64,000 nt of DNA from a virus (Duplodnaviria > Caudoviricetes): IMG/VR virus record IMGVR_UViG_3300024344_003081; one strand, written 5' to 3'. The notes below the pieces were generated by a model. That model ran no database searches and was not told the origin of the DNA. It saw only the letters and a program-made list of their open reading frames with translations. Position 1 is the first letter of the stretch; every line of letters starts with the position of its first letter. Position numbers and translations under genes: made by a program. Below, one piece after another: positions 4,068-23,373 of the stretch.

Positions 4068-4074
4068 GAATTAT

Positions 4075-4668: not shown

Positions 4669-4677
4669 AGAAATAAT

Positions 4678-8060: not shown

Positions 8061-8323
8061 TGAATAAAGATGAACGAAAAGAAATTTCAGAAAAGGCGGC
8101 CCGTGAAGGTGATATCAATGCAATAATAAAACAATTGCAAGATGAAGAAACTCCTGATAAAGTTCAAGCTAGAGATAAAAATTTACTCAAGAGAAGTTTC
8201 GAATATGAATCCGGAGAAGAGGGAATAGGTCATGAGCCATTATTTAAATATAATTTAGATTTTGCAGGATTAATGAGAAATATGTCCTACATAATTAAAA
8301 AATATAAGGAAAGAAAAAAATGA
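8060..8323 (+). CDS. Hypothetical protein (87 aa)
   Basis: TAATG coupling upstream, ATGA coupling downstream. Confidence 0.65.
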   Translation: MNKDERKEISEKAAREGDINAIIKQLQDEETPDKVQARDKNLLKRSFEYESGEEGIGHEPLFKYNLDFAGLMRNMSYIIKKYKERKK

Positions 8324-9696
8324 GATCCCGTTCAGATAAAATTTGTCCAGAATTTAGTAAATTGGATGATATTATTGATTATGAAAGAGGATTGAATGAT
8401 GGAGAGAGTATATGCAAACCATATACAACCCATAAGATTCATGAATTGGCAACTATTCAGGAACAGAGTCTTGCAAAAAATCCAGATTCAAAAATTAGAG
8501 AAATTTCGAATAGAAAATTAAATGAAGTAGTAAAAGAAAATTTTGAATCTGTTTCAACAGATAGACATCGACATCGTATTGAAGATTTAAAACAGGGAAA
8601 AATAAAAACTGAAGAAGCAACTGTTAGTGAAATTTATGATAGACATTTTACACATGGAGAAAATGAAAAAACAAGAGTTGCACATGGTGGTGCAATTCAT
8701 TTATTTTATATGACAAGTCAATGTAATTTAGATTGTAATTATTGCTATCAGCATTTAGAAGGAAGACCTAAACATTTACCCGAACCTCCTTTAATAGCCA
8801 ATCTTATCGATAATATTATGGAATCAGATAGACCTGATGAACAAACTCTTTATTGTATTTTTGGTGGTGAACCTTTGATGGAATGGGAGAATTGTAGATT
8901 TTTAATGGATTATGCTTATAAATCAAAACATAATTGTCATTTTAATATAACATCAAATGGTATATTATTAAGTAAGCCTGCTTTTTTTAAAAAAGTGACC
9001 ACATATTTAGAAGAGCATCCTGAAATAAAACAAAGAGTTTCTTTTGATATTAGTTTTGATGGAGTTGGAAGTCAAGATAGAGTTTATTATTCTGGGAAAG
9101 ATTCAACTCTTGATGTATTAAAATGTTTTGGTAATATTATGGAATACAATAAAGACAAATCCCGTGAAGATCAAATACGGTGGAGATGTAGATATACTAT
9201 TCATAGATCAAATGTAATGTGTTTTGCAAAAGATATGTTTCATATAGCAACGACATATGGACCAGATAGAGTTGTAACATCTTTAGATAATAAGTGTGCA
9301 GAAGGCGAAACGCCAGAAGATGAAGCAAAAATTAAATGGTTATTAAAAGAACAAATTGATTGGCTTAGAGAAAAATGGAGAAGAAATTTAATAAATTATC
9401 CTGTGTGTAGTTTATTTTGTGATATGTGTAATTCATGTGGAGAAAAGAAAGATCATAGATTTTATTATAGTCAACAAGGTCTTGCTAGAATTCAAAATGT
9501 GAATGTAAGAGTTGGAGAAGAGTTCTTTGATTTTCCAGATGCAGATCCCGAAATAGAAAGAGAATTACCTAAAGCTGGGTTACCAAAAACAATGTTTGAT
9601 CGTTTAGGTATAGTTGATACCTTTGGTCAAGGATCTGGAACAGAACATTTACAAGAAACAAAATTTGCGGAAGACGGAAAAAGTCTTTCTTGTTAG
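8320..9696 (+). CDS. Radical SAM protein #3 with N-terminal extension and short C-terminal Cys cluster
   Basis: CNLDCNYC, IFGGEP, TSNG, ISFDG; C-terminal CSLFCDMCNSC rather than a full SPASM pattern. Confidence 0.88.
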   Translation: MRSRSDKICPEFSKLDDIIDYERGLNDGESICKPYTTHKIHELATIQEQSLAKNPDSKIREISNRKLNEVVKENFESVSTDRHRHRIEDLKQGKIKTEEATVSEIYDRHFTHGENEKTRVAHGGAIHLFYMTSQCNLDCNYCYQHLEGRPKHLPEPPLIANLIDNIMESDRPDEQTLYCIFGGEPLMEWENCRFLMDYAYKSKHNCHFNITSNGILLSKPAFFKKVTTYLEEHPEIKQRVSFDISFDGVGSQDRVYYSGKDSTLDVLKCFGNIMEYNKDKSREDQIRWRCRYTIHRSNVMCFAKDMFHIATTYGPDRVVTSLDNKCAEGETPEDEAKIKWLLKEQIDWLREKWRRNLINYPVCSLFCDMCNSCGEKKDHRFYYSQQGLARIQNVNVRVGEEFFDFPDADPEIERELPKAGLPKTMFDRLGIVDTFGQGSGTEHLQETKFAEDGKSLSC

Positions 9697-9704
9697 GAGA
9701 TATT

Positions 9705-10436
9705 ATGGCTGAAGAACATGAATTGATTAAAAAACACGCTAATGAAGCAATACAAGCATTAGTTCCATTATTAGATAATGAAAAAACACGCCATATAGGT
9801 CATGTATTATTAAAAGCAATTGACTTGGGTTTAGGTATGTTGTCAGCAGATGCTAAAGGAGAGTCTAGTGGAGCGAACAATCAAATAAGAGTAAGTGGGG
9901 CTTCTCCTCCAGGAACCGTTCCTCAAAATTTTCAGAAAGATATAGAGCAAGAAAATAAGGTACAGGGATTAGTAGATGAAACATTAAAGGAATTAGAAAT
10001 GATGGATAATCATGAATCTAATCCTGTAACTACAGACAAAGATGGTAATGAAATAGAATATGTAAAAGGAATGCTTTGTAATTGTCAATTTGCTTCTGAA
10101 TTTCACAAATACTGTGATAATCAATGTAAAGAGACTTTGATTAAAGCAGAAGGAAATCCAAAAGAATATATTAAATTTATTGATAAAGAAAGAAAAGAAC
10201 AAGATACTAAATCTCTTGATGAGGCAATGGATGAGGTTACAGGCTTTATTGATACAGAATTGGGTATTGGAGTTTCTCCTAGACCAAAACCACAACAATC
10301 ACAGCAACAAGCTCCTCAAAATGATGTACAGCAAGAAACTCCTTTAAATGAAGAAAACAAGCAATTTGCGTTAGATCCTAGTCAACCTGTTATTATGCCT
10401 GGTGAACCAACTGGACTTGAAAATGACAGTAGTTAA
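9705..10436 (+). CDS. Hypothetical acidic protein with CNC...C..QC motif
   Basis: SD AGGAGA precedes ATG 9705 (track start 9690 is TTG). Confidence 0.7.
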   Translation: MAEEHELIKKHANEAIQALVPLLDNEKTRHIGHVLLKAIDLGLGMLSADAKGESSGANNQIRVSGASPPGTVPQNFQKDIEQENKVQGLVDETLKELEMMDNHESNPVTTDKDGNEIEYVKGMLCNCQFASEFHKYCDNQCKETLIKAEGNPKEYIKFIDKERKEQDTKSLDEAMDEVTGFIDTELGIGVSPRPKPQQSQQQAPQNDVQQETPLNEENKQFALDPSQPVIMPGEPTGLENDSS

Positions 10437-10677
10437 TTTATCCTCTATTAATATTATTGCAGTTCTTACTAAGATAAAAAAATTAGAAGAAAGTAATATT
10501 TCAAATAAATATTCTCGTATAGTTGATTTATTAGATTCTACAAAATCAAGATTTGATGTTTCTCTTGATTCATATAAAAATGTGGAATTATTAGCAGATC
10601 ATATAGAATTTTCAACAACGGGCTTAATTCTTTGGCAAAGAATGAGAGATAAATATAACGACTTAGCGGACAAATGA
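10423..10677 (+). CDS. Hypothetical protein (~84 aa)
   Basis: ATG 10423; ATGA overlap with the next gene. Confidence 0.55.
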   Translation: MTVVNLSSINIIAVLTKIKKLEESNISNKYSRIVDLLDSTKSRFDVSLDSYKNVELLADHIEFSTTGLILWQRMRDKYNDLADK

Positions 10678-11657
10678 TGGCATTCAATGATATACCTGGA
10701 AATTCAACATGGAAAACTGTAAAATGTGATAACGAAATTGTTTCACTTGCTAATGGAAGTGAGCCTGATAAATTTGATCAAATTTTAGATTTATTAAAAT
10801 TAAATAAACAATATTATTTAGAAAATGGAACTACAGAAAACGAATGGCTTGATCGAGTTTCGGGCTTTGCTTGTCAGAGACCATATGTATCAACAACGAA
10901 TGAAGAACGATCTAAAGGAGAAGAATTGGGATTTTATGAAGATTTAGGTAGCCCTGATTGGGAGGCTTCTCAGAATGATTCCAAGATTACTGACCTTGCT
11001 AATGGAAGCGAATCCGATAAATATGATCAAATTTTAAATATATTAAAAACAAATAAAGAATATTATTTAAAAACTGCAGTAACCGAAGATCAATGGACTG
11101 ATAGAGTTTTATATTTTGCATATCAAAGAGGATCTGATGTTAGTGGTGATCCATTTATTGTAGATGATGCACCAGTATTACCTCTTGACTATATGGATTC
11201 TAAAGATATATCATGGTTTAATAGTGATATGAGATGGGAAATCGCAATGAAAATTTTAATTAATGCAATTGATGAAAAAGGAAAAACTTGGTATACAACT
11301 GAAACTGCTCAAACTCCTGATGGTAATATAGCTGGACCAAATGATTCTCAAATTTCTAGTTTAAGTTGGTTGCCATCAAATTGTATATCATTACATAATA
11401 AACTTATAAGTTCTACTTATTCTAAGTTCATATATATTATCAAGTTAAGTAATGTTCATTTGAGATATTCTGAACCATCAAAAATATTTGATGAAATTGA
11501 TACCGAAAACACTACTGCCATTTCAAATCTCAATACATCTCAATTGACAGATTTATTAGCATATGTTAGAGAAGCATATGTAAGTCGTCCAGACGATAAA
11601 ACAAATGAAAATTTTGAAGCCGCATGTGAAATGCTAGAGTTTGATATGGCACAATAA
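10674..11657 (+). CDS. Hypothetical protein with internal tandem duplication of a ~50-aa domain
   Basis: LANGSEPDKFDQILDLLKLNKQYYLE...EWLDRV and LANGSESDKYDQILNILKTNKEYYLK...QWTDRV. Confidence 0.72.
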   Translation: MMAFNDIPGNSTWKTVKCDNEIVSLANGSEPDKFDQILDLLKLNKQYYLENGTTENEWLDRVSGFACQRPYVSTTNEERSKGEELGFYEDLGSPDWEASQNDSKITDLANGSESDKYDQILNILKTNKEYYLKTAVTEDQWTDRVLYFAYQRGSDVSGDPFIVDDAPVLPLDYMDSKDISWFNSDMRWEIAMKILINAIDEKGKTWYTTETAQTPDGNIAGPNDSQISSLSWLPSNCISLHNKLISSTYSKFIYIIKLSNVHLRYSEPSKIFDEIDTENTTAISNLNTSQLTDLLAYVREAYVSRPDDKTNENFEAACEMLEFDMAQ

Positions 11658-11673
11658 TATATTGAGGAATATA

Positions 11674-12057
11674 ATGGTTACTAGAGAAGAAATTGAACAA
11701 AAGTGTAAAGACGCTTTTGATGAAGCAGGCATGGGCCTTTCCTTCCCAGAAATTACACCAGAAAAAAATATAGCACAGGATCTTGATATTGATTCAATTC
11801 ATATTTTAGAGACTATGATTCTTATTGAAGATGAATTTGATATTATGTTAGATGCTGAAGAATTTCAAAAAGCAACTACTGTAAGGGATCTTTATGATTT
11901 AGTTGAAGTAAAAATAAAACAAGGAGCTAAAATTAAAGAACTTGAAAAAGAAGCAGGCGATGATGAAAAAGCTAGAAACAGATTATTAGAACAACTAAAG
12001 AAAGATAAAGAAGCAGGTACAGGGGTTTATGAAATGAGCCAATATGAGAAAAAGTAA
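11674..12057 (+). CDS. acpP: Acyl carrier protein with charged C-terminal extension
   Basis: DLDIDSIHILETMILIEDEFDI matches the ACP helix II motif with the phosphopantetheine Ser in DS; SD GAGGA before ATG 11674. Confidence 0.88.
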   Translation: MVTREEIEQKCKDAFDEAGMGLSFPEITPEKNIAQDLDIDSIHILETMILIEDEFDIMLDAEEFQKATTVRDLYDLVEVKIKQGAKIKELEKEAGDDEKARNRLLEQLKKDKEAGTGVYEMSQYEKK

Positions 12058-13168
12058 AATATCAGGACTTGGTGACTATGGTGTATTTATAGATGATGTA
12101 TCATTAGCAGAAATGTCTGATAATGATTGGATGCAATTAGGAAAAGAACATCTTACAGATTTAGTTACAATTATTAGAAATGTAGATATTCAACCATCTG
12201 AATTTGAACGTAAGATGTATTTATGGGGCGCCCCATATGTTATAGATGGATATCGTATTAAGAAAAAATATGAAAAAAAATTAGGAATATCTAATTTATA
12301 TACATTATTCAAACGTGATCTTTTAGAAGAAGAAGATCGCCGACATGCAGAAAATTTAACGTGGTATATTGCGGCAGGGGATAATTTTACAGAAGAAGAG
12401 GTTCCTGCTGATTCTCATTTAATTCGTATAACTGGTATGAAAGAGAATGGGAGAAGTATGGGAATGTTTGCTGAAGGAGAATTGGGCTGGCATTCTAATG
12501 AAGCGGGTTCGCTTTGCTTTACTCCTGGTGTTGCACTCATGGGCATAAAAGGAATGGTGGGGTCTTCAACAGGATTTGTTTGTTCTGCAACTTGGTACGA
12601 AAAGCAAAGAGATTCTTTTAAAAGAGAATTAGATGATATGACTGTTATTTTTAAATATCAAAATTATGAAACTGCTCCTGAATTAAATAAAGATCAAGAT
12701 GATTCATTTCGTTGGAATCAAACGTTTGAACCGATTGAACTTCCACTGGTTATTACAACCCCTGGAGGAATAAAAGGTCTGCATTATTCTCCTGGTACAG
12801 TAGAGAGAACTAAATTTTTAGATGATTTAGACAAAGAATTATTTGTAGATGAATATACTTATCATCACAAGTATGAAAGAAATAATGATATATTACTTTT
12901 TGATAATTGTATTACTTTGCATAATAGACAAGGATCCCCCATTGAACGAGTGGCTTATCGAGAACCATGTGATTATGCTCAGTTAATTCCTGATGGATAT
13001 AATTATTATTCCCAAGAGCCTTATAAAACACAATTTGAAGAAATGAGAAAAGACATACAGGAAACTCTTGGTGTTAAATCTATAGCTGAACAGAATATGG
13101 TTTTTAAAAAATATATTCAACCAAAATTCCCCAAAAGAGAATGGAAAAACAATGATCTAGTGAGGTAA
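12044..13168 (+). CDS. TauD/TfdA-family Fe(II)/2-oxoglutarate dioxygenase-like protein
   Basis: GELGWHSNE (WHxD-like) and ILLFDNCITLHNR (W/FDNxxxxHxR) motifs. Confidence 0.78.
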   Translation: MRKSKISGLGDYGVFIDDVSLAEMSDNDWMQLGKEHLTDLVTIIRNVDIQPSEFERKMYLWGAPYVIDGYRIKKKYEKKLGISNLYTLFKRDLLEEEDRRHAENLTWYIAAGDNFTEEEVPADSHLIRITGMKENGRSMGMFAEGELGWHSNEAGSLCFTPGVALMGIKGMVGSSTGFVCSATWYEKQRDSFKRELDDMTVIFKYQNYETAPELNKDQDDSFRWNQTFEPIELPLVITTPGGIKGLHYSPGTVERTKFLDDLDKELFVDEYTYHHKYERNNDILLFDNCITLHNRQGSPIERVAYREPCDYAQLIPDGYNYYSQEPYKTQFEEMRKDIQETLGVKSIAEQNMVFKKYIQPKFPKREWKNNDLVR

Positions 13169-13169
13169 A

Positions 13170-13787
13170 ATGAAAAAAATGATGATAACAGGTGTGAGTT
13201 CTGGTTTAGGAAAAGCACTTTTTGAATATTATGATGGAAAATATATTCAAAAATATAAAGATGTAATAGAAGTTGAAGGTCACAGTAGAAGATATAATCA
13301 ACATGATATTCAAGACATTAAAGATTGGTTTGATCCTGAAGCAGATATTTTTATCAATAATGCATATAGTGATCTGAGATGGTGGACTCAAACGAATGCA
13401 TTATTATATTCTTTTTCAGTTTGGGCAGATAAACCCGATAAACATATTGTGTCTATAAGTTCAATTGCACAGGAAAAAGATACTGATGGATGGCCTATTG
13501 GTCATAGTAGATATTCAGTAGGAAAAATTTCTCTTGATAAAATGAATTTAGACTGTCATGAAAAAGTAGCAAAAAAACATGGATGTAAAGTTTCTAATTT
13601 AAGACTTGGTTGGGTAGAAACACCTAGAACAACAAGAATAAGTACTGTAGTAAGTCGTTTATATGATGTTGATCCTGTTAAGCAAACAACTGGAACAATG
13701 TTGAGTACAGATGAATGTATAGATGCTATAGACTTTATGTTAAATCATAGTGGAAGAGTAAGAGAAATGACATTGGAGGCAAAATGA
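13170..13787 (+). CDS. Short-chain dehydrogenase/reductase (SDR)
   Basis: ITGVSSGLG Rossmann motif, INNA, YSVGK (YxxxK). Confidence 0.88.
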   Translation: MKKMMITGVSSGLGKALFEYYDGKYIQKYKDVIEVEGHSRRYNQHDIQDIKDWFDPEADIFINNAYSDLRWWTQTNALLYSFSVWADKPDKHIVSISSIAQEKDTDGWPIGHSRYSVGKISLDKMNLDCHEKVAKKHGCKVSNLRLGWVETPRTTRISTVVSRLYDVDPVKQTTGTMLSTDECIDAIDFMLNHSGRVREMTLEAK

Positions 13788-14812
13788 GCAAGGTGTTACA
13801 AATAGCAACTAGACATCCTGAAAATGAACATCATAATAAAGATTTTGCCGCAGAATTAAAATTATGGTGGGAAGAAAAAGGATATTCGGGTAGAGTTTTT
13901 GATAGATATCTTCCATTAACGGGTGTTGAAACTCGATATGCTTGTTATAATCGAGAGGAGATGAGAGAAAAATCTCAAACGTTTACTCAAAAAAATAAAA
14001 CATTTAATGAAGTTGCTATAAAATTATCATTAGAATGTGTAAAGGAATTGGAATTTAATCCACAAGATGTTTGTATGTTAACATCAACTACTATGACAGG
14101 TGTTGGTATTCCTACGATTCCCCATACAATATTAAAAGAATTTAATTTTCCAGAATCAATGATTAAAATACCCATGTTTGGTCTAGCATGTAATGGAGGC
14201 ACTCATATTTTAGGAATAGCAAATGAATATTTAAAAGGTAATCCAGACAAGTTAGTTATAGCAATGACTAACGATTTATGTTCAATGAATTTGTGTCCTG
14301 AACATGCTACATTAACAACTGTTTTTGGATCTGTAATATTTGGTGATGGAATTAGTGCTATTTTAATTGCAGGAGATAATTATAATGATGCACCAGGATG
14401 GAAATTACATAAACATGTGTCATATGTTTTACCAGATACAGAAGATTATATTACTCTTCAAGGATTAAGTGAAGGATTATTATATCATGTAGAATCAACT
14501 AAATTGCAAGAAATACCAAAAGCATCTGCGGCATTTAATGATAAAATTAAAGAATTTATTGAAGGTCATACTATTAATAATTGGATATGTCATCCAGGAG
14601 GAAAAATTGTTTTAGAAAATACTGTAAAGGGGCTTAATTTACCTGAAGGTGCTTTGGATTCATCTTTTGAATTATTTCGAAATTTTGGAAATATGTCTGC
14701 AACTTCAGTAATAAAAACTTTACAGCATGATTTTGATAAAGATGGCAAAACAGTTATGATTTCTTATGGGCCAGGTTTTCAGGTTGATGTTATATTATTA
14801 GAAAAAATATGA
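13784..14812 (+). CDS. Type III polyketide synthase (chalcone/alkylresorcinol synthase family)
   Basis: Cys-His-Asn triad contexts GLACNGG, WICHPGGK.VL, FGNMSATSV; also FGDG and SYGPGF. Confidence 0.92.
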   Translation: MSKVLQIATRHPENEHHNKDFAAELKLWWEEKGYSGRVFDRYLPLTGVETRYACYNREEMREKSQTFTQKNKTFNEVAIKLSLECVKELEFNPQDVCMLTSTTMTGVGIPTIPHTILKEFNFPESMIKIPMFGLACNGGTHILGIANEYLKGNPDKLVIAMTNDLCSMNLCPEHATLTTVFGSVIFGDGISAILIAGDNYNDAPGWKLHKHVSYVLPDTEDYITLQGLSEGLLYHVESTKLQEIPKASAAFNDKIKEFIEGHTINNWICHPGGKIVLENTVKGLNLPEGALDSSFELFRNFGNMSATSVIKTLQHDFDKDGKTVMISYGPGFQVDVILLEKI

Positions 14813-15237
14813 TTTGGGGAAAAGATAAACACGATATTCGTAATAGAATTTTGTCGATGACAATAGAAAATGGCTTGGGTATAGATTTACAAACAATAGA
14901 ACCCATTCAAAAAATATATGATAAATGGGGTGATAAATTTGTTAATAAAATATTAACAGATATAGAAAAGAAAAATGCACCAAATCCCATAACTGCAAAA
15001 TATTTAACAAAATGTTGGTGTGTTAAAGAAGCATTTTCAAAAGCAATTGCATCTCCATATTTGAGACTCGATGTTAGTTATACACATTTAAAAGCTAGAG
15101 GAGCAAGATTTCCTGTTGTTCATTGTGTTATGGAACCCAAAGATTGGAATTTGAAACGACAAGATATTAGACTTTCTTTATCTGATACAAAAGATTATGT
15201 GGTCGCAATAGTTATTACAGGAGTTAATCCTTTGTGA
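14809..15237 (+). CDS. acpS: Holo-ACP synthase (AcpS-type 4'-phosphopantetheinyl transferase)
   Basis: GLGIDL, W.VKEAFSKA, LSLSDTKDYVVAIV motifs; ~140 aa. Confidence 0.85.
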   Translation: MIWGKDKHDIRNRILSMTIENGLGIDLQTIEPIQKIYDKWGDKFVNKILTDIEKKNAPNPITAKYLTKCWCVKEAFSKAIASPYLRLDVSYTHLKARGARFPVVHCVMEPKDWNLKRQDIRLSLSDTKDYVVAIVITGVNPL

Positions 15238-15959
15238 TAAAAACCTTAGACTATACAATCCCTTCTGAATGGAATAATAAAAATATTATTTCTAGTTTTA
15301 TTGATTCGGGATTTTTAGTAATTAATCATCCCTTCATAGATATGAAAGAAGGTTTACTTTCTTTTAAAGAAAAACTTAAAATACAATTAAACGAATTAGA
15401 AGAAACTGAAGAGGGGTATAGAAAAATTATATTAAAAAATTGTGATAATATTAAACAAAGATTTTTAAAAGTGGGATGTGAAATTTTATATGTTATTGAA
15501 GAATTTTTAAATGTTCCTCCAAATTCTATTGCAATGAAACATGCTGATTCTGATAATGCTTTGAGATTGGTTAAATATTATAAAGATCAGAAAGGATCAA
15601 TAAGAGTAGGAGAACATTGTGATTTTGGTACTTTAACACTTGTTCATGTTTGTGATCCTGTAGAAGAATATGAAATATTTTATGATGATAAATGGAGAAC
15701 AATAAATCATCCTAGTGATGATTTTTTGATTGTGAATATAGGTGATTTTATGCAGATTTGGTCAGATAATAAATTAAAATCTACTCCGCATAGAATAACG
15801 AATAAAACAAAAAAAGAAAGACACAGTATGATTATGTTTATGGATGCTGGTAATCATACTATTAAAGGAATTGATCATGCTACTTGGAATAAAAAAAGAA
15901 TACAAATGGCTCATACAGGAGTAACATATTATCATGACAAAGGTATCGTACAAATATAA
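15234..15959 (+). CDS. Fe(II)/2OG dioxygenase, isopenicillin-N-synthase-like
   Basis: LRLVKY, GEHCDFGTLTL (HxD), VNIGDFMQIWS...STPHR, RHS (RxS). Confidence 0.9.
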   Translation: MIKTLDYTIPSEWNNKNIISSFIDSGFLVINHPFIDMKEGLLSFKEKLKIQLNELEETEEGYRKIILKNCDNIKQRFLKVGCEILYVIEEFLNVPPNSIAMKHADSDNALRLVKYYKDQKGSIRVGEHCDFGTLTLVHVCDPVEEYEIFYDDKWRTINHPSDDFLIVNIGDFMQIWSDNKLKSTPHRITNKTKKERHSMIMFMDAGNHTIKGIDHATWNKKRIQMAHTGVTYYHDKGIVQI

Positions 15960-16692
15960 AGTATGGTTTTTAATATTAATGAATCATGTTCTAATGATAA
16001 TAGGAATTTATTATGCTATAACAGAATCATCATATTATTTGTTTATTGTACTGTTTATTGGACTTTTATTGAGTAAGTTGGGTGGAGAAATAGGAACTCA
16101 TAGATATCTTTCTCACCGATCTTTTAAAACTGGACCCATAAGAAATTTTATATTGCAAATTATGGGATTAATAAATTGTAATGGTTCACCTATGACTTGG
16201 GCTATATTGCATAGATATCATCATATGAATGCAGATAAGCCAGAAGAACCCCATTCTCCAAATATAATACCATGGTGGAAGTGCTGGTTGACTTTGTGGA
16301 ATCCTATATCTCCTAATCCAAAAGAGTATATGGATTTATTGAAAGATCCATTAGTTAAAAACATACACAAATATTATTTTTATATGATAATATTGATGTT
16401 TGGAATATTATATTTGTTAGACTGGAGATTACTTGTATTTTTAGTTTGTATTCCTTCTGTAATAACCTTTCATGGATCAACTTTATTAATAAATACTATT
16501 TCTCATAAATGGGGATATCGTAATTTTGATACTGATGATAATAGTAGAAATAATACGTGGATTAATTTTTTAATATGGGGAGGGGGCTTACATAATAATC
16601 ATCACGCTTATCCTGAAAGATATAATGAAAAAGTAACAGATAACGAAAGGGATCCTTGTGGCTGGATTATTGAAAAATTTTTTAAAATATAG
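15934..16692 (+). CDS. Membrane fatty-acid desaturase (Delta9-like) paralogue 1
   Basis: His boxes HRYLSH, HRYHH, HNNHH; hydrophobic segments. Confidence 0.92.
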   Translation: MTKVSYKYKVWFLILMNHVLMIIGIYYAITESSYYLFIVLFIGLLLSKLGGEIGTHRYLSHRSFKTGPIRNFILQIMGLINCNGSPMTWAILHRYHHMNADKPEEPHSPNIIPWWKCWLTLWNPISPNPKEYMDLLKDPLVKNIHKYYFYMIILMFGILYLLDWRLLVFLVCIPSVITFHGSTLLINTISHKWGYRNFDTDDNSRNNTWINFLIWGGGLHNNHHAYPERYNEKVTDNERDPCGWIIEKFFKI

Positions 16693-17452
16693 TAGTACTT
16701 GGCATACTCATTTAGGATTTCAAATATTATTTCATATTGTAGCGGCATTAGGAATTGTCTATAGTTCTTGGCATTGGTTATGGTTAAGTCTTATTGGAGT
16801 AATATTATTTCGACATATAGGGGGTGAAATAGGCGCCCATAGATATTATGCTCATAGAAGTTTTGAAGCAAAACCTTGGGCTCAAAAATTAATGATTATA
16901 TGTGGACTTTTTTTATATCAAGGATCGCCATATTCTTTTATTCCAATTCATAGATTACATCATCAAAAATCAGATACAATTGATGATCCTCATTCTCCCC
17001 ATTTTTTAAATTTTGTAAATGTGTATTTTCCTAGTGCGAACCAGTATTATCGTGAACCCGTGGATAAATCATATTTTGCAGATTTAATTAAAGATCCCGT
17101 TTTACAATTTTTACATAGAAATTATTTAATTATAGTAACTATACCATTGATTATAACAGCATTAATAGATTGGAGAATACCTGTTTTTCTATTTGCTATT
17201 CCAGTTGTAATTACATTTCATTCTGCGGGATTGGGAAATACTATAGGTCATTTATATGGATATAGAAATTTTGAAACAACTGATAAAAGTCAAAATTCTA
17301 CATGGGTGAACATATTAACTTTAGGATCAGGATTACATAATAATCATCATGCATATCCTGAAAGATATAATTATAAAATGACAAATAAATGGTATGAAAG
17401 AGATGATTTAAATGTTTTTTTAATCGAAAAATTATTAATGGAGAAAAAATGA
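16658..17452 (+). CDS. Membrane fatty-acid desaturase paralogue 2
   Basis: HRYYAH, HRLHH, HNNHH; exact start uncertain (GTG 16658 or TTG 16670). Confidence 0.92.
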   Translation: MAGLLKNFLKYSSTWHTHLGFQILFHIVAALGIVYSSWHWLWLSLIGVILFRHIGGEIGAHRYYAHRSFEAKPWAQKLMIICGLFLYQGSPYSFIPIHRLHHQKSDTIDDPHSPHFLNFVNVYFPSANQYYREPVDKSYFADLIKDPVLQFLHRNYLIIVTIPLIITALIDWRIPVFLFAIPVVITFHSAGLGNTIGHLYGYRNFETTDKSQNSTWVNILTLGSGLHNNHHAYPERYNYKMTNKWYERDDLNVFLIEKLLMEKK

Positions 17453-18219
17453 AAATCATTTCAAAATATAATAATACCTGGATGGCATATTTTGGATTTC
17501 AAATTTTATTTCATATATTAACTGTTGTTGGATTGTTATATTCATCATGGCATTGGCTGTGGTTGTCTTTAGTGGGCATTATTTTTTTCAGACATATTGG
17601 TGTAGAAATTGGCGCCCATCGATATTTTGCACATAAAAGTTTTAAAGCAAAACCTTGGGCTAAAAAATTAATGGCCATTTGTGGACTTTTTGCATATGGA
17701 GGAACACACTATGCTTGGATTCCTTTTCATAGACTACATCATCAAAAATCAGACACTAAATTGGATCCCCATTCACCACATCACATGAGTTTCATAGATG
17801 TTTATTTTACTAACTGGCGAGTTGAAGTGTTAGATGTTAAATTGTATCAAGATTTAATAGAAGATAAATTTTTACAATTTTTACATAGAAATTATTTAAT
17901 TATAGTAACTACACCATTAATTTTATTTGCATTGATAGATTGGAGAATATCTGTTTTTCTATTTGCTATTCCAAGTGCATTTGCACTTCATTCTGGGGGG
18001 CTGGTAAATTCTATAGGGCATTTATATGGATATAGAAATTTTGATGATACAAACGATAAAAGTCGAAATTCTACATGGGTGAATATACTAACTTTAGGAG
18101 AAGGTCTGCAGAATAATCATCATGCACATCCTGAAAGATATAATTTTAAAATGTCTAATAGATGGTATGAGACAGATTTTTTGAACGTTTTTCTAATAGA
18201 AAAGTTTTTAAAGGCGTGA
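17449..18219 (+). CDS. Membrane fatty-acid desaturase paralogue 3
   Basis: HRYFAH, HRLHH, QNNHH. Confidence 0.9.
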   Translation: MKIISKYNNTWMAYFGFQILFHILTVVGLLYSSWHWLWLSLVGIIFFRHIGVEIGAHRYFAHKSFKAKPWAKKLMAICGLFAYGGTHYAWIPFHRLHHQKSDTKLDPHSPHHMSFIDVYFTNWRVEVLDVKLYQDLIEDKFLQFLHRNYLIIVTTPLILFALIDWRISVFLFAIPSAFALHSGGLVNSIGHLYGYRNFDDTNDKSRNSTWVNILTLGEGLQNNHHAHPERYNFKMSNRWYETDFLNVFLIEKFLKA

Positions 18220-19082
18220 TAATGTTTAAATATGAGATGACACGAAATGCAATTATTATTGGGATGATGATTCATTTATCTTTTCATGTTTTATTAGTAT
18301 ATGGAATAATAACTTTTTCTTTACATTGGTTGTGGTTAACATTAATAGGAACCATTTTAATTCGACATATAGGAACTGAAATAGGCGCTCACAGGTATTA
18401 TACTCATCAAAGTTTTAAAGCAAATCCGTGGGCACAGTGGCTTATGTCTATTTTATTTGTATGGAATTATGGAGGTAGTATGTTAGCATGGTGTCCTGGA
18501 CACAGTTATCATCATAGATTTTCTGATAGTAAACATGATATACAATCTCCACATTATATAAAAAAATTTAAAGATTTTGTTAGAGTTGTTTTTCCTGCAG
18601 TATTCGCATATGAAAAATTATATAACGATGAAATTGATAAAATGAGAATGAAAAGATACATGGAATGGTTTCATGAAAAGAGGGGTTTTATGGAATTAAT
18701 GAAGAATAAACCAGCGAGATTTACTCATAATTATTATTGGTTGATTGTATCTCTTCCAATTATAATTTTACCAATAATTGATATTCGTTTATTAATCTTT
18801 CTTATAGCAATACCATGTGTAATTAATTTTTGGTCTTTGGCTCTACTAAATTTTTTTGGACATATTTCTACTATTGGAAGTTATAAAAATTTCGAAACTG
18901 ATGAGTGGGGTAACAAGGAACGTTCAGTTAATACTCTATGGTTAAATATATTTACTGGGGGAATGGGACTACAAAATAATCACCATCATAATTCAAGAGC
19001 CTATAATTTTAAAATGAATGATAAATGGCATGAAACAGATTTTTTGAATGTATTTTTAATAGAAAAATTTTTAAAGGTTTAA
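18216..19082 (+). CDS. Membrane fatty-acid desaturase paralogue 4
   Basis: HRYYTH, HSYHH, QNNHH. Confidence 0.9.
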   Translation: MIMFKYEMTRNAIIIGMMIHLSFHVLLVYGIITFSLHWLWLTLIGTILIRHIGTEIGAHRYYTHQSFKANPWAQWLMSILFVWNYGGSMLAWCPGHSYHHRFSDSKHDIQSPHYIKKFKDFVRVVFPAVFAYEKLYNDEIDKMRMKRYMEWFHEKRGFMELMKNKPARFTHNYYWLIVSLPIIILPIIDIRLLIFLIAIPCVINFWSLALLNFFGHISTIGSYKNFETDEWGNKERSVNTLWLNIFTGGMGLQNNHHHNSRAYNFKMNDKWHETDFLNVFLIEKFLKV

Positions 19083-19083
19083 C

Positions 19084-19923
19084 ATGTTCAAATTTACAGC
19101 AAATAGGTTTGCAGTTATTATGATTTCTATTATTCATACGTTATTTCATATATTAACTGTATATGGATTAATAACTTTTTCTTTACATTGGTTATGGTTA
19201 TCTTTTATTGGTGTTATATTATTACGACATATCGGTACAGAAATAGGAAATCATCGATATTTTTGTCATAGGAGTTTTGAAGCAAAACCTTGGGCAGAAT
19301 GGCTTATGATGATTGGATATGCATTTTCGTATGGAGGAAGTAATATAGCATATGCTATAGGTCATAGATGGCATCATGCTACATCTGATACTGAAAAAGA
19401 TCCAATTTCTCCTCATAACATTAAGAATGTTAAAGATGTTTTTAGAATTATAACTCAAACTTTAGGAGAACTTCAACAGGAAGAACGTAAAGATTGGAAT
19501 ATTTTTAGAAAAAGTGAAAATAAATTTTGTAAAAAATTATTTAAAAATAAAGTAGCAAGATTCAATCATGAATATTATTGGTTAATAGCACTTTCTCCCA
19601 TTGTAATTTTATCAATAATCGATATTCGTTTGTTAATATTTTTTATAGCATTACCTTGTGTTATAACTTTTTGGTCTGGAATGTTAGCACATTTTTTAGG
19701 ACATGTAATGTTATTTGGTTGTTATAGAAATTATGAAACTACAGTTGATGATCTATCGGTAAATAATCCATGGTTAAATATAATAACAGGAGGATTAGGA
19801 ACATTACATAATAATCATCATGCACATCCTGAAAGATATAATTATAAAATGTCTAATAGATGGTATGAGACAGATTTTCCCAATGTGTTTTTAATAGAAA
19901 AGTTTTTAAAACATGATAGATAA
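19084..19923 (+). CDS. Membrane fatty-acid desaturase paralogue 5
   Basis: HRYFCH, HRWHH, HNNHH. Confidence 0.92.
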   Translation: MFKFTANRFAVIMISIIHTLFHILTVYGLITFSLHWLWLSFIGVILLRHIGTEIGNHRYFCHRSFEAKPWAEWLMMIGYAFSYGGSNIAYAIGHRWHHATSDTEKDPISPHNIKNVKDVFRIITQTLGELQQEERKDWNIFRKSENKFCKKLFKNKVARFNHEYYWLIALSPIVILSIIDIRLLIFFIALPCVITFWSGMLAHFLGHVMLFGCYRNYETTVDDLSVNNPWLNIITGGLGTLHNNHHAHPERYNYKMSNRWYETDFPNVFLIEKFLKHDR

Positions 19924-20707
19924 CCTTAATAAATTATTTGTTAAAGATTTTCAAATTAGTATATTACAATATGTGTGGATTTATACCTTTCCTATCATAT
20001 CTGTATTGGGAATAATATATTCGTCATGGCATTGGTTGTTTTTAACATTAGTGGGTATAATTTTGTTTAAAGATATTGGAGGCGAAATAGGAGTCCATAG
20101 ATACTGGACACATAATTCATTTAAAGCGAAACCTTGGGTACCAAAATTATTTTCAATTTGTACAATTTTATGCTATGCTGGTAGTCCTCTTACTTGGTCA
20201 TATGTTCATAGACATCATCATGAGCATTCTGATACTGAAAAGGATGTACACTCTCCCCACCACAGCAAATGGTATCATATCTGGAGAGGATATTGGGATT
20301 TTTCAAAAATAGAAAAGTTTGATCCTAGATTCGTAGCAGATTTGTTGAAAGATGAATCAATAAAATTTGCACATCGATATCATTTATTAATTCAAATATG
20401 CGTAATCATAATAACTGTGTCTATAGATTGGAGAATATTTGTATTTTTATTTGCTCTTCCTAGTGCAATAACATTTTGGTTTGGATCTATAGCTGTTAAT
20501 ATGATGAGTCATTTGTGGGGATATCGTAATTTTGAAACACCTGATAATTCAAAAAATAATATACTTGCTTGTATTCTTGTTTCTTCTGGAGGATTACAAA
20601 ACAATCATCATTATAATCCTTCTTCATATAATTTTAAAATGTCAGATAGATGGTATGAACAAGATATGAAAAATGTGTTTCTTATTGAAAGATTTTTTAA
20701 AGCATGA
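19913..20707 (+). CDS. Membrane fatty-acid desaturase paralogue 6
   Basis: HRYWTH, HRHHH, QNNHH. Confidence 0.9.
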   Translation: MIDNLNKLFVKDFQISILQYVWIYTFPIISVLGIIYSSWHWLFLTLVGIILFKDIGGEIGVHRYWTHNSFKAKPWVPKLFSICTILCYAGSPLTWSYVHRHHHEHSDTEKDVHSPHHSKWYHIWRGYWDFSKIEKFDPRFVADLLKDESIKFAHRYHLLIQICVIIITVSIDWRIFVFLFALPSAITFWFGSIAVNMMSHLWGYRNFETPDNSKNNILACILVSSGGLQNNHHYNPSSYNFKMSDRWYEQDMKNVFLIERFFKA

Positions 20708-21468
20708 TTAATTATTATATTAAATCTAAGCGAACTCCCTATTTTTTCTTAATTAATTTAATTGCTCATTTAGCAATTATACCCGCAATTCTTTATGGCG
20801 AATGGTGGATGTGGATATTAAGTTTGATATGGTGGCAGTGGATAGGATGTACAGCATATACTACTGGGTATCATAGGTATTATACTCATAAAAGTTTTAA
20901 AGCACCGCTTTGGTATGATTATTATTTTAATTTTTTTTCTTTATTTGGTAATCCAGGACCAGTTCTTATATGGAGCGGAACACATAAATTACACCACAAA
21001 TATAGTGATACGGAATTAGATCCACATAGTCCTAAACATAAAGGATTTTGGAATGTGTGGACAAGTTTTTGGGGAATGGGAGTGTTTACAATAGATCCTC
21101 CTACAAGAGAAGATTTAAAAGATTGGTTAGAAGAAACAAAAGATCCTATTGCTAAATGGTTTTATGATAATTATCTTTCTTTAACAGTTATTATTATGAT
21201 TGTATTGTTATTCATGGGTCCTTGGTTTTTTATATTTGGTTTTTGTATTCCTACATGTTTAATACTTCATGGTTCGGGTATTATTAATGCATTTACTCAT
21301 AAGAATGGAAAACCAGAGAATAAAAATTTAGTGGCATTGATAACCGCTGGAGAAGGATGGCATTTGAATCATCATGAAGATCCATCTAATTATACGACAA
21401 GAAAAGAGTCGTATAAATGGTGGCAAGTTGACTTAAATGGTATATGGATCAATTTAATTAAAATATAG
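20704..21468 (+). CDS. Membrane fatty-acid desaturase paralogue 7 (closest to canonical Delta9)
   Basis: GYHRYYTH, HKLHH, GEGWHLNHH. Confidence 0.93.
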   Translation: MINYYIKSKRTPYFFLINLIAHLAIIPAILYGEWWMWILSLIWWQWIGCTAYTTGYHRYYTHKSFKAPLWYDYYFNFFSLFGNPGPVLIWSGTHKLHHKYSDTELDPHSPKHKGFWNVWTSFWGMGVFTIDPPTREDLKDWLEETKDPIAKWFYDNYLSLTVIIMIVLLFMGPWFFIFGFCIPTCLILHGSGIINAFTHKNGKPENKNLVALITAGEGWHLNHHEDPSNYTTRKESYKWWQVDLNGIWINLIKI

Positions 21469-21486
21469 GCTCGATATATATTAACA

Positions 21487-21517
21487 CCAGAGAATGGAAA
21501 CGAAAGTTCCGCTTTGG
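21487..21517 (+). other. Stem-loop with GAAA tetraloop upstream of the tRNA-like element
   Basis: CCAGAG/CTTTGG outer helix enclosing GGAAAC-GAAA-GTTCC. Confidence 0.5.
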
Positions 21518-21519
21518 AC

Positions 21520-21592
21520 AGGGGTGTAGTTTAATTAAAACGGCCAACAGGGTGTTGGGAAGTTGTGAGTGTAAATCTCGCCACCCCGACCA
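21520..21592 (+). tRNA. Non-canonical tRNA-Pro(GGG)-like RNA with encoded CCA
   Basis: Cloverleaf: acceptor AGGGGTG/CACCCCG plus A-CCA, D stem GTTT/AAAC, anticodon arm CCAA-CAGGGTG-TTGG, T stem GTGAG/CTCGC; lacks D-loop GG, U33 and TTC. Confidence 0.6.
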
Positions 21593-21612
21593 AAATTAAA
21601 AAAAAGTATGTT

Positions 21613-22419
21613 ATGATTACAATTAATACATGGAAAAATAATTATATTATTGCACATGATCCTCATTCAAAAATTGAAATAGATTCTTTGAATAAATTAT
21701 TTGTTTCATTAGTAGATAAAATTGGGGGTAGTGATCAAGATTCTATTGAACGAGCAAAGAGAAAAGGTGAATATTTATTAATTGCTGGACATGCAAATAT
21801 AAAATATGAATTGTTAGCAAGAACTTTTCAAGATTTTCTTAAACAATTTGAAATTGGTTATGATTGGAGAGGTGAAAGTTCTGCTGATAATATATCATTA
21901 TTTAATGAATTAAATATTTTACCAACAGAAGATCCTTCTACAGGTGCTATAGGTGGAGGAGTGCCTGATGATAATCAGAATGAAATAGAATTAGGTATTC
22001 TTCCATTGGTTACTATTCTCAATACATTTGATGGAATTAGAACTTTTGGTTCATGTGAAGGACACTATGTTAAGTCTGATTTTCTCAATGCGTATATATC
22101 ATGGACTGCTTGCAATATAAATGGACTAAATTATTCTACATTTCTTTTAAAAAATGCAATTAATGGTGTTTGGGAAAAAAGAAAATTAAATGATGATGAG
22201 AATTTTAATATAAATCAAATAATTAATAGAATTACATTAAGTTTTAATACAGGATATTGGAAGCCTGCACGTTTAAGGACTGCTCCATTACCAGGTGAAA
22301 ATTTTTATCATTTTCGTTTTGATTATGAATTTAAATTTCGATCACTTGTTTTTAATATAATAAATGATATTGCTGAACATATTATAAATGAAAAATATGA
22401 ATTGTCAAAGGAGATATAA
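21613..22419 (+). CDS. Hypothetical protein with LV..LN...GIRTFGSCEGH motif (weakly TYW3-like)
   Basis: Track start (21565 GTG) lies inside the tRNA-like element, so ATG 21613 is preferred; family guess from a short motif only. Confidence 0.6.
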   Translation: MITINTWKNNYIIAHDPHSKIEIDSLNKLFVSLVDKIGGSDQDSIERAKRKGEYLLIAGHANIKYELLARTFQDFLKQFEIGYDWRGESSADNISLFNELNILPTEDPSTGAIGGGVPDDNQNEIELGILPLVTILNTFDGIRTFGSCEGHYVKSDFLNAYISWTACNINGLNYSTFLLKNAINGVWEKRKLNDDENFNINQIINRITLSFNTGYWKPARLRTAPLPGENFYHFRFDYEFKFRSLVFNIINDIAEHIINEKYELSKEI

Positions 22420-22682
22420 TGGCTAAAATTAGTGAAATATCTAATGAGTTGAAGAAAAAACTTGAAGACACAATGCAGGGTGGATATACAGGAGGCTGTC
22501 AAGAGTGGATTAATTTAATTGCAACTGCTGAACCGTCAGAAAATGAAAAAGAAGCAAATATGTTAAAAGCGTTAAATGATTTAACAACACAATTTACAGC
22601 AACGATGTCTGGAAATGCACCAGGTGATCTGACAATTTGGTATCAAGAATTAAACTTTGCTATGAATGAATATTTGACTTAA
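22419..22682 (+). CDS. Hypothetical protein (87 aa)
   Basis: SD GGAG; TAATG coupling. Confidence 0.7.
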   Translation: MAKISEISNELKKKLEDTMQGGYTGGCQEWINLIATAEPSENEKEANMLKALNDLTTQFTATMSGNAPGDLTIWYQELNFAMNEYLT

Positions 22683-22689
22683 TAATCTT

Positions 22690-23373
22690 ATGAAAATAGA
22701 ATTTTATGGTTCTAGTATAATAGGATCAAATACTTTTCAAATAGAAAAGCCTAAAGCATTCTATGATTTGATTCTTGATCATTTCAATGCTTCTTCATTA
22801 AATTATATGATAGCACAATGTTCAGAAGAAAGGATTCTTTACAATTTAAAAAAGACCAGTGAAATTGATATAGCAATAATCTTTCATTCAACTCCTCAAT
22901 TTATATATTTTCCAAATTTTACTAGAGATTTTATTTATATGAATGATGATAGAGTTGATGATTGGGATAATCGGCAACATTTTTTAGATTATGTTGATGC
23001 TTTTAAACAAAACAGAAAAGACATAGTTACAAATTTTAGTGTACCTACAGAACCTATTGATGCATCAATTATAAAAGATTTCATGAAATTACATTTTAAT
23101 AGAGATGTAAATAGAAATAGATTTCATGGAGCATTATCTTTAATTGATGAATATGTTTATTCAAAAAAAATACCAACAATACACGTTATAAATGATCATA
23201 TTCCTGGTTGGTTTACTTTTAAATCGGGCATTATAGATGAAGATATTTGTGAAATCGAAAAAGAATATAGTGTATCATTCAATAAATCTGTAAATGGAAT
23301 AAGTGAAGAGGGAAATAATCTTATTTTTAATAAATTAATTGGTTTGATCCAAAGTACAATACAAAGGACATAA
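22690..23373 (+). CDS. Hypothetical protein (227 aa)
   Basis: ORF; no confident motif. Confidence 0.65.
   Translation: MKIEFYGSSIIGSNTFQIEKPKAFYDLILDHFNASSLNYMIAQCSEERILYNLKKTSEIDIAIIFHSTPQFIYFPNFTRDFIYMNDDRVDDWDNRQHFLDYVDAFKQNRKDIVTNFSVPTEPIDASIIKDFMKLHFNRDVNRNRFHGALSLIDEYVYSKKIPTIHVINDHIPGWFTFKSGIIDEDICEIEKEYSVSFNKSVNGISEEGNNLIFNKLIGLIQSTIQRT

Follow-up and report, generated by a model that had tools for sequence, protein, structure and literature searches.

An acyl carrier protein-centered gene cassette in a marine T4-like phage, possibly for a specialized unsaturated lipid or polyketide

Can a phage of the virulent type carry a lipid biosynthetic pathway of its own? The question is raised by positions 11674-21468 of a 64,000-nucleotide stretch of viral DNA (IMG/VR record IMGVR_UViG_3300024344_003081), which as a whole is referred to here as the window. 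This block holds 13 plus-strand open reading frames (ORFs), whose neighbors overlap by 4-35 nt or are separated by gaps of 1-2 nt. A preliminary description of the sequence had assigned them to an acyl carrier protein (ACP), the phosphopantetheinyl transferase AcpS, a type III polyketide synthase (PKS), a short-chain dehydrogenase/reductase (SDR), two dioxygenases and seven desaturases, and had suggested that together they make up a complete pathway to a highly unsaturated or acetylenic phenolic lipid. All of these genes are found at the positions given for them. Profile-based confirmation of the families had been called for, and matches to Pfam and NCBIfam models provide it; the Pfam gathering score is exceeded by the ACP, the TauD-like protein, both domains of the PKS, AcpS, the 2-oxoglutarate (2OG) oxygenase and five of the seven desaturases. 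We put at about 0.5 the probability that this accessory cassette of a virulent-type marine T4-like phage encodes an ACP-centered pathway for a specialized unsaturated lipid or polyketide. On the best reading, an acyl chain templated on the ACP and desaturated several times would be taken up by the PKS and converted to a phenolic or pyrone lipid.

The phage nature of the DNA is clear from the genes on both sides. The window starts with a collagen-like tail-fiber gene, which is followed by a variable island that sits before the head genes. Downstream of the island are the genes of the prohead protease, scaffold, major head protein, UvsY, UvsW, a gp46/47-like nuclease, DNA polymerase and replicative helicase. 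For the major capsid protein (MCP), identity is 64% with Pelagibacter phage HTVC008M, 63% with Methylophilales phage Melnitz and approximately 60% with cyanomyophages. We regard the source as a genuine virulent-type marine T4-like phage, a relative of the pelagimyophages, and the earlier statement that the genes form one contiguous block inside a T4-like genome, with a tail fiber upstream and head and replication genes downstream, is confirmed. When the cluster was compared by megablast with isolated phages, no match was obtained.

A chimeric assembly, which the preliminary description had named as something to be checked, can be rejected. Public data contain the exact 9.9-kb block in no fewer than 20 runs, which come from six or more studies of marine and subsurface water. 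Contigs of four independent runs, with 0-6 differences, together cover 8-26 kb and span the passages from orf327 to the ACP gene, from the last desaturase gene (D7) to orf284, and from orf87 to orf192, so that both junctions are spanned; the GC content of the cassette (29.5%) is like that of the phage core (30.8%). Read depth is approximately 6-8 across the island and 25-40 beyond 23363. The island border at 23363/23364 is sharp: the homology to a related phage contig, G001:C1, starts there, contigs of three runs diverge there, and depth rises about four-fold. Such a depth step is expected if only some members of the phage population have a strain-variable island.

The same cluster occurs in at least seven distinct related phage contigs, where a Cys-repeat protein and three radical SAM genes come before it and orf192 and the head genes follow it. 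The contigs that bear the PKS are four from IMG/VR (72% PKS identity), L007 (83%), L008 (75%) and L009/L010 (68%). Their common core is invariably ACP-SDR-PKS-AcpS plus 2-7 desaturases, around which other genes vary, among them TauD, 1-3 2OG oxygenases, Rieske/Ring_hydroxyl_A oxygenases and proteins of the Asp/Arg beta-hydroxylase family. Contig L008 (ENA ERZ27252534 k141_1736921), compared with window positions 4678-22682, encodes proteins 99-100% identical to the three radical SAM enzymes, orf284 and orf87, but its ACP-to-desaturase block is only 58-81% identical and differs in content, with a FabA-like dehydratase directly after the PKS (E 6e-29, with weak ApeI-like and MaoC matches), an Asp_Arg_Hydrox protein, three desaturases and no TauD. 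Since the flanks are 99% identical and the cassette 58-81%, the cassette must therefore have been exchanged between otherwise near-identical phages. In every gene tested, the ratio of nonsynonymous to synonymous substitution rates (dN/dS) against the nearest orthologues is 0.14-0.43, which indicates purifying selection throughout.

A further relative shows what the island looks like with other contents. Contig G001:C1 (161,038 bp) is 94-96% identical to the window from 23364 on and keeps the tail fiber and the Cys-repeat/radical SAM module, without ACP or PKS; where the lipid genes would be, there are a 2OG oxygenase, an AMP-binding enzyme, a protein of the bile-acid/Na symporter family and genes of no recognized function. 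The block is a cassette that can be swapped, constant in its core, within a hypervariable island, and its position matches that of the pelagimyophage 'host recognition cluster', a hypervariable region for which radical SAM cassettes are mentioned and no PKS or ACP (PMC7029224). As a side observation, G001:C1, a near-complete T4-like phage genome, is the largest contig of a 1.9-Mb, 90%-complete metagenome-assembled genome that serves as species representative, and no FA_desaturase gene was found in that assembly. Its presence there is either binning contamination or a hint about the host.

The center of the proposed pathway is the carrier protein and its activating enzyme. The ACP matches the Pfam PP-binding family with 31.5 bits, above the cut-off, and NCBIfam ACP models with E-values down to 4e-12; the Ser of its D-S-I motif is invariant among six orthologues. 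Its C-terminus extends into a Lys/Glu-rich tail of approximately 45 residues that is shared with L008 and absent from the other relatives. AcpS matches Pfam ACPS (43.3 bits) and the NCBIfam holo-ACP synthase models, and has the GxD and KEAxxKA motifs. Judged by their domains and the conserved Ser, ACP and AcpS-type 4'-phosphopantetheinyl transferase (PPTase) appear to be a pair of carrier protein and activating enzyme. The SDR, a constant member of the core that always lies between ACP and PKS, scores 18.2 bits with Pfam adh_short, below the cut-off of 26.6. However, its TGxxxGxG, NNA, Ser and YxxxK motifs are all invariant, a PHROG FabG-like family matches with E 4e-7, and the protein is placed in a large viral family of short SDRs (Atlas score 0.98). 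It is likely to be a ketoreductase. An AlphaFold2 (AF2) model of it, built from a shallow alignment, was too poor for a fold search (pLDDT 48).

The kind of product is suggested by the PKS. Its Chal_sti_synt C-domain and N-domain score 41.9 and 33.0 bits, respectively (cut-off 27), and among 13 phage homologues Cys136, Asn303 and F186 (the Phe of FGDG) are invariant and His270 is kept in at least 90%. The Cys-His-Asn triad aligns with that of the Mycobacterium tuberculosis alkylpyrone synthase Pks11, which is also the best solved relative (E 2e-29), ahead of the plant chalcone and stilbene synthases (CHS/STS); models of FabH reach only E 1e-5 (cf. 1e-29 for Pks11). No NCBIfam equivalog is reached (DpgA, 77 bits with a cut-off of 425), and the nearest named relatives, at 28-31% identity, are bacterial type III PKSs or proteins annotated by JGI as alkylresorcinol/alkylpyrone synthases. 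These similarities hint at a long-chain acyl starter, as in the alkylresorcinol and alkylpyrone synthases. In known systems of this kind, ArsB and ArsC take their starter directly from the carrier domain of ArsA, and the ars operon has a PPTase of its own, ArsD. A type III PKS has also been made to work with a free-standing carrier: in engineered Escherichia coli, HsPKS1 accepted a desaturated acyl chain bound to JamC (bioRxiv 10.1101/291195).

An exhaustive profile search of 1.84 billion representatives places the phage PKSs in a single cluster at 50% identity, comprising approximately 20 clusters at 90% identity, all metagenomic; every other full-length relative in that search is at most 31% identical. 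No member of the clade came up when 185,579 species genomes were scanned for its motifs, with the limit that distant relatives escape pattern scans. Within the collections searched the clade thus appears to be confined to phages. Among isolated phages, tblastn with the PKS gave a sole match, Streptomyces phage ZL12 (22% identity, 71% of the query covered). A separate oddity met among type III PKS-like proteins is P0021, a predicted protein of 4818 residues with 12 separate type III PKS-like stretches, which may be an odd multi-domain protein or a run-on gene call.

The seven desaturases (D1-D7) are the most conspicuous part of the cassette. An alignment of 21 phage copies, D1-D7 among them, keeps throughout HRYxxH, HxxHH, a further His in the fourth transmembrane segment (TM4), an Asn and (H/Q)xNHH, with Gln in place of the first His of the third box in D3, D4 and D6. 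D5 and D7, which have no Pfam match, retain every metal-ligand column in this alignment. The best solved relative is mammalian SCD1 (4ymk, E 2e-15), with which the His and Asn motifs align, and the ligand set of three His boxes, TM4 His and Asn suggests enzymes of the SCD1/DesC (Delta-9) type. With the NCBIfam model DesA_fam the scores are 54-88 bits, far from the cut-off of 400.

A recent expansion of this array was considered and is ruled out. The tree of the 21 copies has three old orthologue groups, A (D7), B (D1) and C (D2-D6, the five group C copies of the window). The closest pair, D2 and D3, is 69% identical with a synonymous divergence (dS) of approximately 0.65, and the other pairs are 21-55% identical. 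Orthologues of D7 are found in L004, L005, L007 and L008, and D4, which has an insert of approximately 30 residues after box 2, has its orthologue at L008 14749-15615. By these sequence comparisons the array is old and maintained.

Is the link between carrier and desaturase peculiar to this cassette? In IMG/VR, 243 contigs carry SCD-like desaturases, of which 80 were examined for an ACP within 10 kb of the desaturase. An ACP was found in 14 of the 80, and these fall into three contexts: four are the PKS cassette, seven combine radical SAM, desaturase and ACP, and three are fragments of large viruses. The second context is seen in L038 and L042-L048 (e.g., L043 9038-11037); in L042-L048 the trio has a Rieske oxygenase and a rubrerythrin-like gene nearby. 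In the third (L033, L034 and L040), 7-11 tandem desaturases are accompanied by a FabF/B-type ketosynthase, an ACP and an ATP-grasp enzyme, with a Rieske protein and a rubrerythrin/ferritin-like protein in addition in L033. Tandem arrays of 5-11 SCD-like desaturases are present in L030, L031, L033, L034, L040 and L062. CheckV estimates five of these records to be 2-31% complete (L062 was outside the check), and a search of these fragments for an MCP gave no match; they are probably pieces of very large viruses.

A link between ACP and desaturases gains indirect support from the two further, unrelated viral contexts and from cellular homologues of D3 (30-34% identity) that sit in cassettes of acyl-ACP ligase, desaturase and ACP. 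The three independent associations fit the thiotemplated logic known from polyynes, in which a ligase loads the ACP, three membrane desaturases work on the chain while it is tethered, and a ferritin or rubredoxin assists (PMC9828172). Single desaturases without a carrier also occur beside phage tail fibers. For example, the cultured SAR11 myophage Mosig (Pelagibacter phage, MT647606.1 50756-69274) has one FA_desaturase-domain gene there, with no ACP or PKS and with Asp_Arg_Hydrox, aminotransferase, FMN reductase, peroxiredoxin, TauD and methyltransferase genes as neighbors. Contig L023 is like Mosig in having a single desaturase with hydroxylases and sugar-modifying genes and no ACP.

The closest known gene sets are the cay/pgn polyyne clusters and the JamABC/TtuABC cassettes, which share with the phage block a dedicated ACP adjoining several SCD1-type membrane desaturases with HxxHH/QxxHH boxes. 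The cay/pgn clusters are defined by FAAL (an acyl-ACP ligase), ACP, three membrane desaturases, a thioesterase and a rubredoxin or ferritin (PMC9828172). In contrast, the phage block lacks FAAL/JamA, thioesterase and rubredoxin and has a type III PKS, SDR and AcpS; its desaturases fall outside the JamB-like clade, and its carrier is a lytic-type phage. No sequence feature indicates triple bonds, and the desaturases cannot be told apart from ordinary ones, so that the acetylenic or polyyne product proposed earlier is not upheld. The polyyne idea is a matter of resemblance: the cluster falls outside the definition of a polyyne biosynthetic gene cluster (BGC), yet it may work like one.

Other comparisons show in what sense the combination is new. 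The alkylresorcinol and alkylpyrone systems (Pks11/Pks18, ArsABCD, SrsA, CylI) have Cys-His-Asn type III PKSs of approximately 340-350 residues, as here, but the phage enzyme is only 28-31% identical to them and comes with a stand-alone ACP instead of a type I fatty acid synthase (FAS), with a desaturase array and on a phage. The pairing of JamABC with HsPKS1 (bioRxiv 10.1101/291195) is alike in that an ACP-bound chain is desaturated and then serves as starter of a type III PKS; unlike the phage cassette it is man-made and includes an acyl-ACP ligase. Cyanophage vFAD-I and vFAD-II are Delta-9/DesC-type membrane desaturases of marine T4-like phages, each one gene among other viral genes, which cluster with the two types of DesC found in their picocyanobacterial hosts, protein identity being less than 70% (PMC5776448). 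In contrast, the desaturases considered here, 2-7 deeply diverged paralogues from three lineages, are linked with ACP, PPTase and PKS; their identity to cellular enzymes does not exceed 35%, and they do not group with host DesC types as the vFADs do. A type III PKS is also carried by the Streptomyces plasmid-phage ZL12, a pseudolysogenic actinophage, whose enzyme is the distant tblastn match given above. It is the only type III PKS reported in phages, in which BGCs are rare, mostly for bacteriocins, and mostly in temperate phages (bioRxiv 2020.10.01.322628). Finally, the tandem dioxygenase arrays of the Syn9 type (PMC2938197) and the pelagimyophage island (PMC7029224) are likewise oxygenase-rich hypervariable blocks by tail fibers, but have no scaffold-building enzyme or carrier, whereas PKS, ACP and PPTase are all present here. 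The ingredients belong to two kinds already known, lipid clusters with a type III PKS and thiotemplated desaturation; new is the set of ACP, PPTase, PKS and multiple desaturases on a virulent-type marine phage. The preliminary description could place no precedent for it in a lytic-type phage, and the literature searched holds no description of such a cluster in phage.

Both dioxygenases had been counted among the pathway enzymes, a view that the present comparisons do not sustain. The TauD-like protein (Pfam TauD, 42.7 bits; phrog_24590, E 2e-63) is 34-36% identical to proteins of Prochlorococcus phages P-HM1, P-HM2 and MED4-213. An invariant W-H-S-N-E stands where HxD/E would be expected, and the distal HNR (ITLHNR) is present; the WHSNE motif recurs in the 36%-identical P-HM2 homologue (L098 1090-2148). 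The canonical HxD/E...H facial triad of TauD is therefore absent from what, judged from these motifs, is a conserved non-canonical family member, and the chemistry of phrog_24590 may differ from that of TauD. Its AF2 model, from a shallow alignment, was also too poor for a fold search (pLDDT 31). The second enzyme (Pfam 62.2 bits) has a readable HxD (HCD)...H (PHR)...RxS (RHS) set and TraH as its best solved match (E 4e-12). In relatives the TauD-like gene lies elsewhere in the cassette or is absent. Because its family occurs in Prochlorococcus phages without PKS, and because the 2OG oxygenase has a 43% identical homologue in G001:C1, which lacks ACP and PKS, the two are floating accessories of the island, outside the pathway core. 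For tandem dioxygenases near the tail genes of T4-like cyanophages, modification of peptides or of collagen-like tail proteins has been proposed (PMC2938197); by analogy this could apply here too, since the upstream fiber has collagen-like repeats. The earlier claim that the catalytic motifs of every component are intact thus stands for the ACP, PKS, AcpS, 2OG oxygenase and desaturases, and has to be relaxed for the SDR, which has the motifs and falls below the Pfam cut-off, and for the TauD-like protein, which is without HxD/E.

If the ACP-centered reading is right, the pathway may operate as follows. The phage AcpS would convert the phage apo-ACP to its holo form, a step suggested by the families of the two proteins. 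A fatty acyl chain would be placed on the ACP by host fatty acid synthesis or by an unrecognized protein; one of these must load it, because no phage enzyme for acyl loading was found. With O2 and an electron donor of the host, the seven SCD1/JamB-type di-iron membrane desaturases would make the chain unsaturated at several places while it is tethered. Primed with this chain, the PKS would elongate it from malonyl-CoA to an alkylresorcinol- or alkylpyrone-type lipid, whose release by the PKS would stand in for the absent thioesterase; tailoring of the product would fall to the SDR, as ketoreductase, and to the variable oxygenases. The lipid would most likely end up in the envelope of the infected cell. 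Its location in an island by the tail fibers and its exchange between near-identical phages point away from core replication and to a role in conflict between phage and host or between phages, for example a block to superinfection or protection of the envelope during infection. The roles named in the preliminary description, those of a toxin, an anti-grazing compound or a virion coat, are conjectural. The wider proposition is that a lineage of abundant marine lytic phages builds, on a carrier of its own, a phenolic or pyrone lipid rich in double or triple bonds (poly-ene or poly-yne), and diversifies this pathway through cassette swaps and a growing desaturase set because the lipid serves as weapon or shield in conflicts among phages, hosts and grazers; it is tentative, and we incline to doubt it.

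Several observations weigh against the ACP-centered reading. Acyl loading and electron supply are assumed steps. The profile scan of the window ORFs revealed neither an acyl-ACP ligase (FAAL) nor an acyltransferase, thioesterase, rubredoxin or ferredoxin, and no AMP-binding protein among those ORFs or in the cassettes of relatives; the rubredoxin/ferritin redox helper and the release thioesterase of polyyne BGCs were likewise not found in the window. The complete pathway that had been supposed is in this respect not supported. The position of the SDR next to the PKS, and the FabA-like dehydratase of L008, hint at FAS-like processing on the ACP as opposed to resorcinol release. In 66 of the 80 desaturase contigs examined, no ACP was detected within 10 kb, and for 13170-16692 no RNA runs are listed.

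The desaturases themselves add to this doubt. Compared with plasmid proteins, D3 is 30-35% identical both to solo cyanobacterial DesC-like enzymes and to desaturases of polyyne/alkyne cassettes. The cassette-type matches (30-34% identity), annotated as acyl-CoA desaturases, lie inside FAAL-desaturase-ACP sets, for example the FAAL-Des-Des-ACP-Des-hydrolase-rubredoxin-P450 cassette of Streptomyces and further FAAL/ACP/desaturase cassettes of Burkholderia gladioli and Polaromonas. In a joint tree with a small reference set, the FAAL-ACP-cassette desaturases cluster with the solo DesC-like enzymes (support 98/98), the phage groups B and C lie outside this cellular clade, and group A stands weakly beside it. 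The solo lipid desaturases are as close to the phage enzymes as the cassette ones are, and the substrate of the phage desaturases could be a host membrane lipid. As a comparison of sequences, the tree is not decisive between acyl-ACP and membrane lipid. A predicted complex of D3 with ACP residues 1-85 scored 0.05, which speaks neither for nor against binding.

These doubts give room to other explanations. The desaturases, together with the Asp/Arg-hydroxylase, TauD, 2OG and Rieske oxygenases of relatives, might remodel the membrane lipids or the lipid A acyl chains of the host, with PKS, ACP and SDR making a separate acyl donor (e.g., a 3-hydroxyacyl-ACP) and with a changed cell surface and the exclusion of competing phages as the outcome; we consider this unlikely, with a fair amount in its favor. 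The island corresponds to the pelagimyophage 'host recognition cluster', which its authors linked to surface modification and to the avoidance of co-infection (PMC7029224), and the cyanophage vFADs have been proven to be Delta-9 desaturases, active on the C16 chains of lipids when expressed in yeast (PMC5776448). Mosig and L023 pair a desaturase with Asp_Arg_Hydrox, TauD and sugar-modifying genes and have no ACP, and most of the viral desaturase loci examined have none nearby. LpxO and OlsC, which hydroxylate the acyl chains of lipids, belong to the Asp_Arg_Hydrox family. However, no acyltransferase was found that would move a chain from the ACP into a lipid, seven paralogues far exceed the needs of fluidity control, the desaturases are interleaved and translationally coupled with ACP, AcpS and PKS in every variant, and the condensing enzyme is by homology a type III PKS rather than a FabH. 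A second possibility is a small FAS or polyene synthase, in which the PKS would act as the ketosynthase of an iterative ACP-bound cycle with the SDR as ketoreductase and, in some phages, the FabA-like dehydratase; its product, a hydroxylated or polyene acyl-ACP of the kind made in aryl-polyene or flexirubin systems, would be oxidized further by the desaturases. The invariant order ACP-SDR-PKS, the dehydratase right after the PKS in L008, and the pairing of desaturase arrays with a FabF/B-type ketosynthase and ACP in other large-virus contigs all agree with such a cycle. We nevertheless judge it improbable: the match to Chal_sti_synt is far better than that to KAS III, and the window has neither dehydratase nor enoyl reductase. 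The extenders of type III PKSs are CoA-linked and the growing chain stays on the enzyme's own Cys; these enzymes are not known to run an ACP cycle.

Two further explanations carry still less weight. A lipid made on the ACP might be joined to the Cys-heptad protein modified by the three radical SAM enzymes, giving a product like a lipidated peptide that is made by the ribosome and modified post-translationally (RiPP), or a component of the virion or tail. Fatty-acylated RiPPs have precedents in the lipolanthines and selidamides, and in every PKS-bearing contig the Cys-repeat/radical SAM module lies ahead of the cassette on the same strand, with no recognizable T4 late promoter between 3535 and 23378. 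We hold this to be very unlikely, as the module is present without ACP or PKS in G001:C1, the two modules of L008 diverge differently (99% versus 58-81%) and so were inherited separately, and neither a GNAT nor a condensation or acyl-transfer enzyme turned up that could link lipid to peptide. An artifact, either host DNA joined to the phage in assembly or an acquired block that no longer functions and is decaying, would be in keeping with the low depth of the island (approximately 6-8, against 25-40 for the core in the same runs) and with the lack of any listed RNA run. It is hardly credible when contigs of four runs bridge both junctions, the same architecture recurs in at least seven distinct contigs, no ORF is broken, dN/dS is 0.14-0.43, the GC content agrees with that of the phage, and a depth step is what a strain-variable island in part of the population would produce.

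Table 1. Genes of the cassette and of the adjoining parts of the island, with positions in the window
Feature	Position	Strand	Evidence or remark
ACP, 127 aa from ATG	11674..12057	+	PP-binding (Pfam match 11641/11674-12057)
TauD/TfdA-like protein, accessory	12044..13168	+	Pfam TauD
Short SDR-type oxidoreductase, 205 aa, likely ketoreductase	13170..13787	+	Motifs, PHROG, Atlas
Type III PKS, 342 aa	13784..14812	+	Chal_sti_synt_N and _C
AcpS-type 4'-phosphopantetheinyl transferase, 142 aa	14809..15237	+	Pfam ACPS
2OG-Fe(II) oxygenase, IPNS/ACC-oxidase type, accessory	15234..15959	+	Pfam 2OG-FeII_Oxy
Desaturase D1, orthologue group B	15934..16692	+	PF00487 58 bits; SCD1 structure 4ymk E 2e-15
Desaturase D2, group C, GTG start uncertain	16658..17452	+	PF00487 60.7 bits; 69% identity to D3
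Desaturase D3, group C, third box QNNHH	17449..18219	+	PF00487 56.8 bits
Desaturase D4, group C, third box QNNHH	18216..19082	+	PF00487 56.1 bits
Desaturase D5, group C, sister to D4	19084..19923	+	NCBIfam DesA_fam E 1e-15, no Pfam match
Desaturase D6, group C, long branch, third box QNNHH	19913..20707	+	PF00487 57.8 bits
Desaturase D7, group A, without GYRNFxT segment	20704..21468	+	NCBIfam DesA_fam E 1e-14, no Pfam match
Neighboring module: Cys-heptad protein, three radical SAM enzymes, orf222, orf248, orf91, orf327	4075..11657	+	
Trailing island genes orf284, orf87, orf227	21565..23363	+	Up to right island border

The genes around the cassette (Table 1) belong to the same island. The Cys-heptad protein and three radical SAM genes (4075-9696) precede the cassette position in nearly every relative (L004, L007, L008, L009 and L002, which is G001:C1), and L005 has two radical SAM genes only in its available stretch. 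The module is regarded as a separate unit because it is also present in the relative without ACP and PKS. A side observation concerns orf284 (21565-22419) and orf222 (7392-8060), which match the same L004 ORF (approximately 3980-4690) with 26% and 37% identity, respectively. The two may be distant paralogues, one in the part after the desaturases and the other in the radical SAM part. In G001:C1 the homologue of orf284 adjoins a 2OG oxygenase, and the Atlas model for orf284/orf222 is poor.

Few regulatory or RNA features stand out. Searches of the island with ARAGORN and Rfam found no tRNA or Rfam match, the 96-nt spacer between D7 and orf284 (21469-21564) folds no better than its shuffles (z -1.45), and scans for promoters and terminators gave the same counts as in shuffled sequence. 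The T4 late promoter motif has seven sites in the window, below chance expectation, and is informative by position only. One such T4-type motif, TATAAATA, stands at 23378, just past the island border, and no recognizable one was found from 3535 up to there.

What would such a cassette mean for the biology of these phages? The auxiliary genes of phages usually patch single steps of host metabolism; here a phage has a carrier, an activator, a synthase and an oxidative tailoring set of its own. If the wider proposition given above is true, a virulent phage would for the first time be seen to have a thiotemplated pathway to a lipid natural product, and the related combinations of ACP and desaturase arrays, with up to eleven copies, in other large viruses would make it a general viral strategy. 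Should the product be a new lipid, it would represent a compact route, free of ligase and thioesterase, from a carrier-bound chain to polyunsaturated polyketide lipids, and the seven divergent small desaturases, of approximately 250 residues each, would be of interest to enzymology. The phage group includes phages of SAR11 and OM43. With a new lipid as product, very abundant ocean bacteria would, when infected, contain lipids specified by a virus, with consequences for membrane biology, for superinfection exclusion and, possibly, for marine lipid biomarkers.

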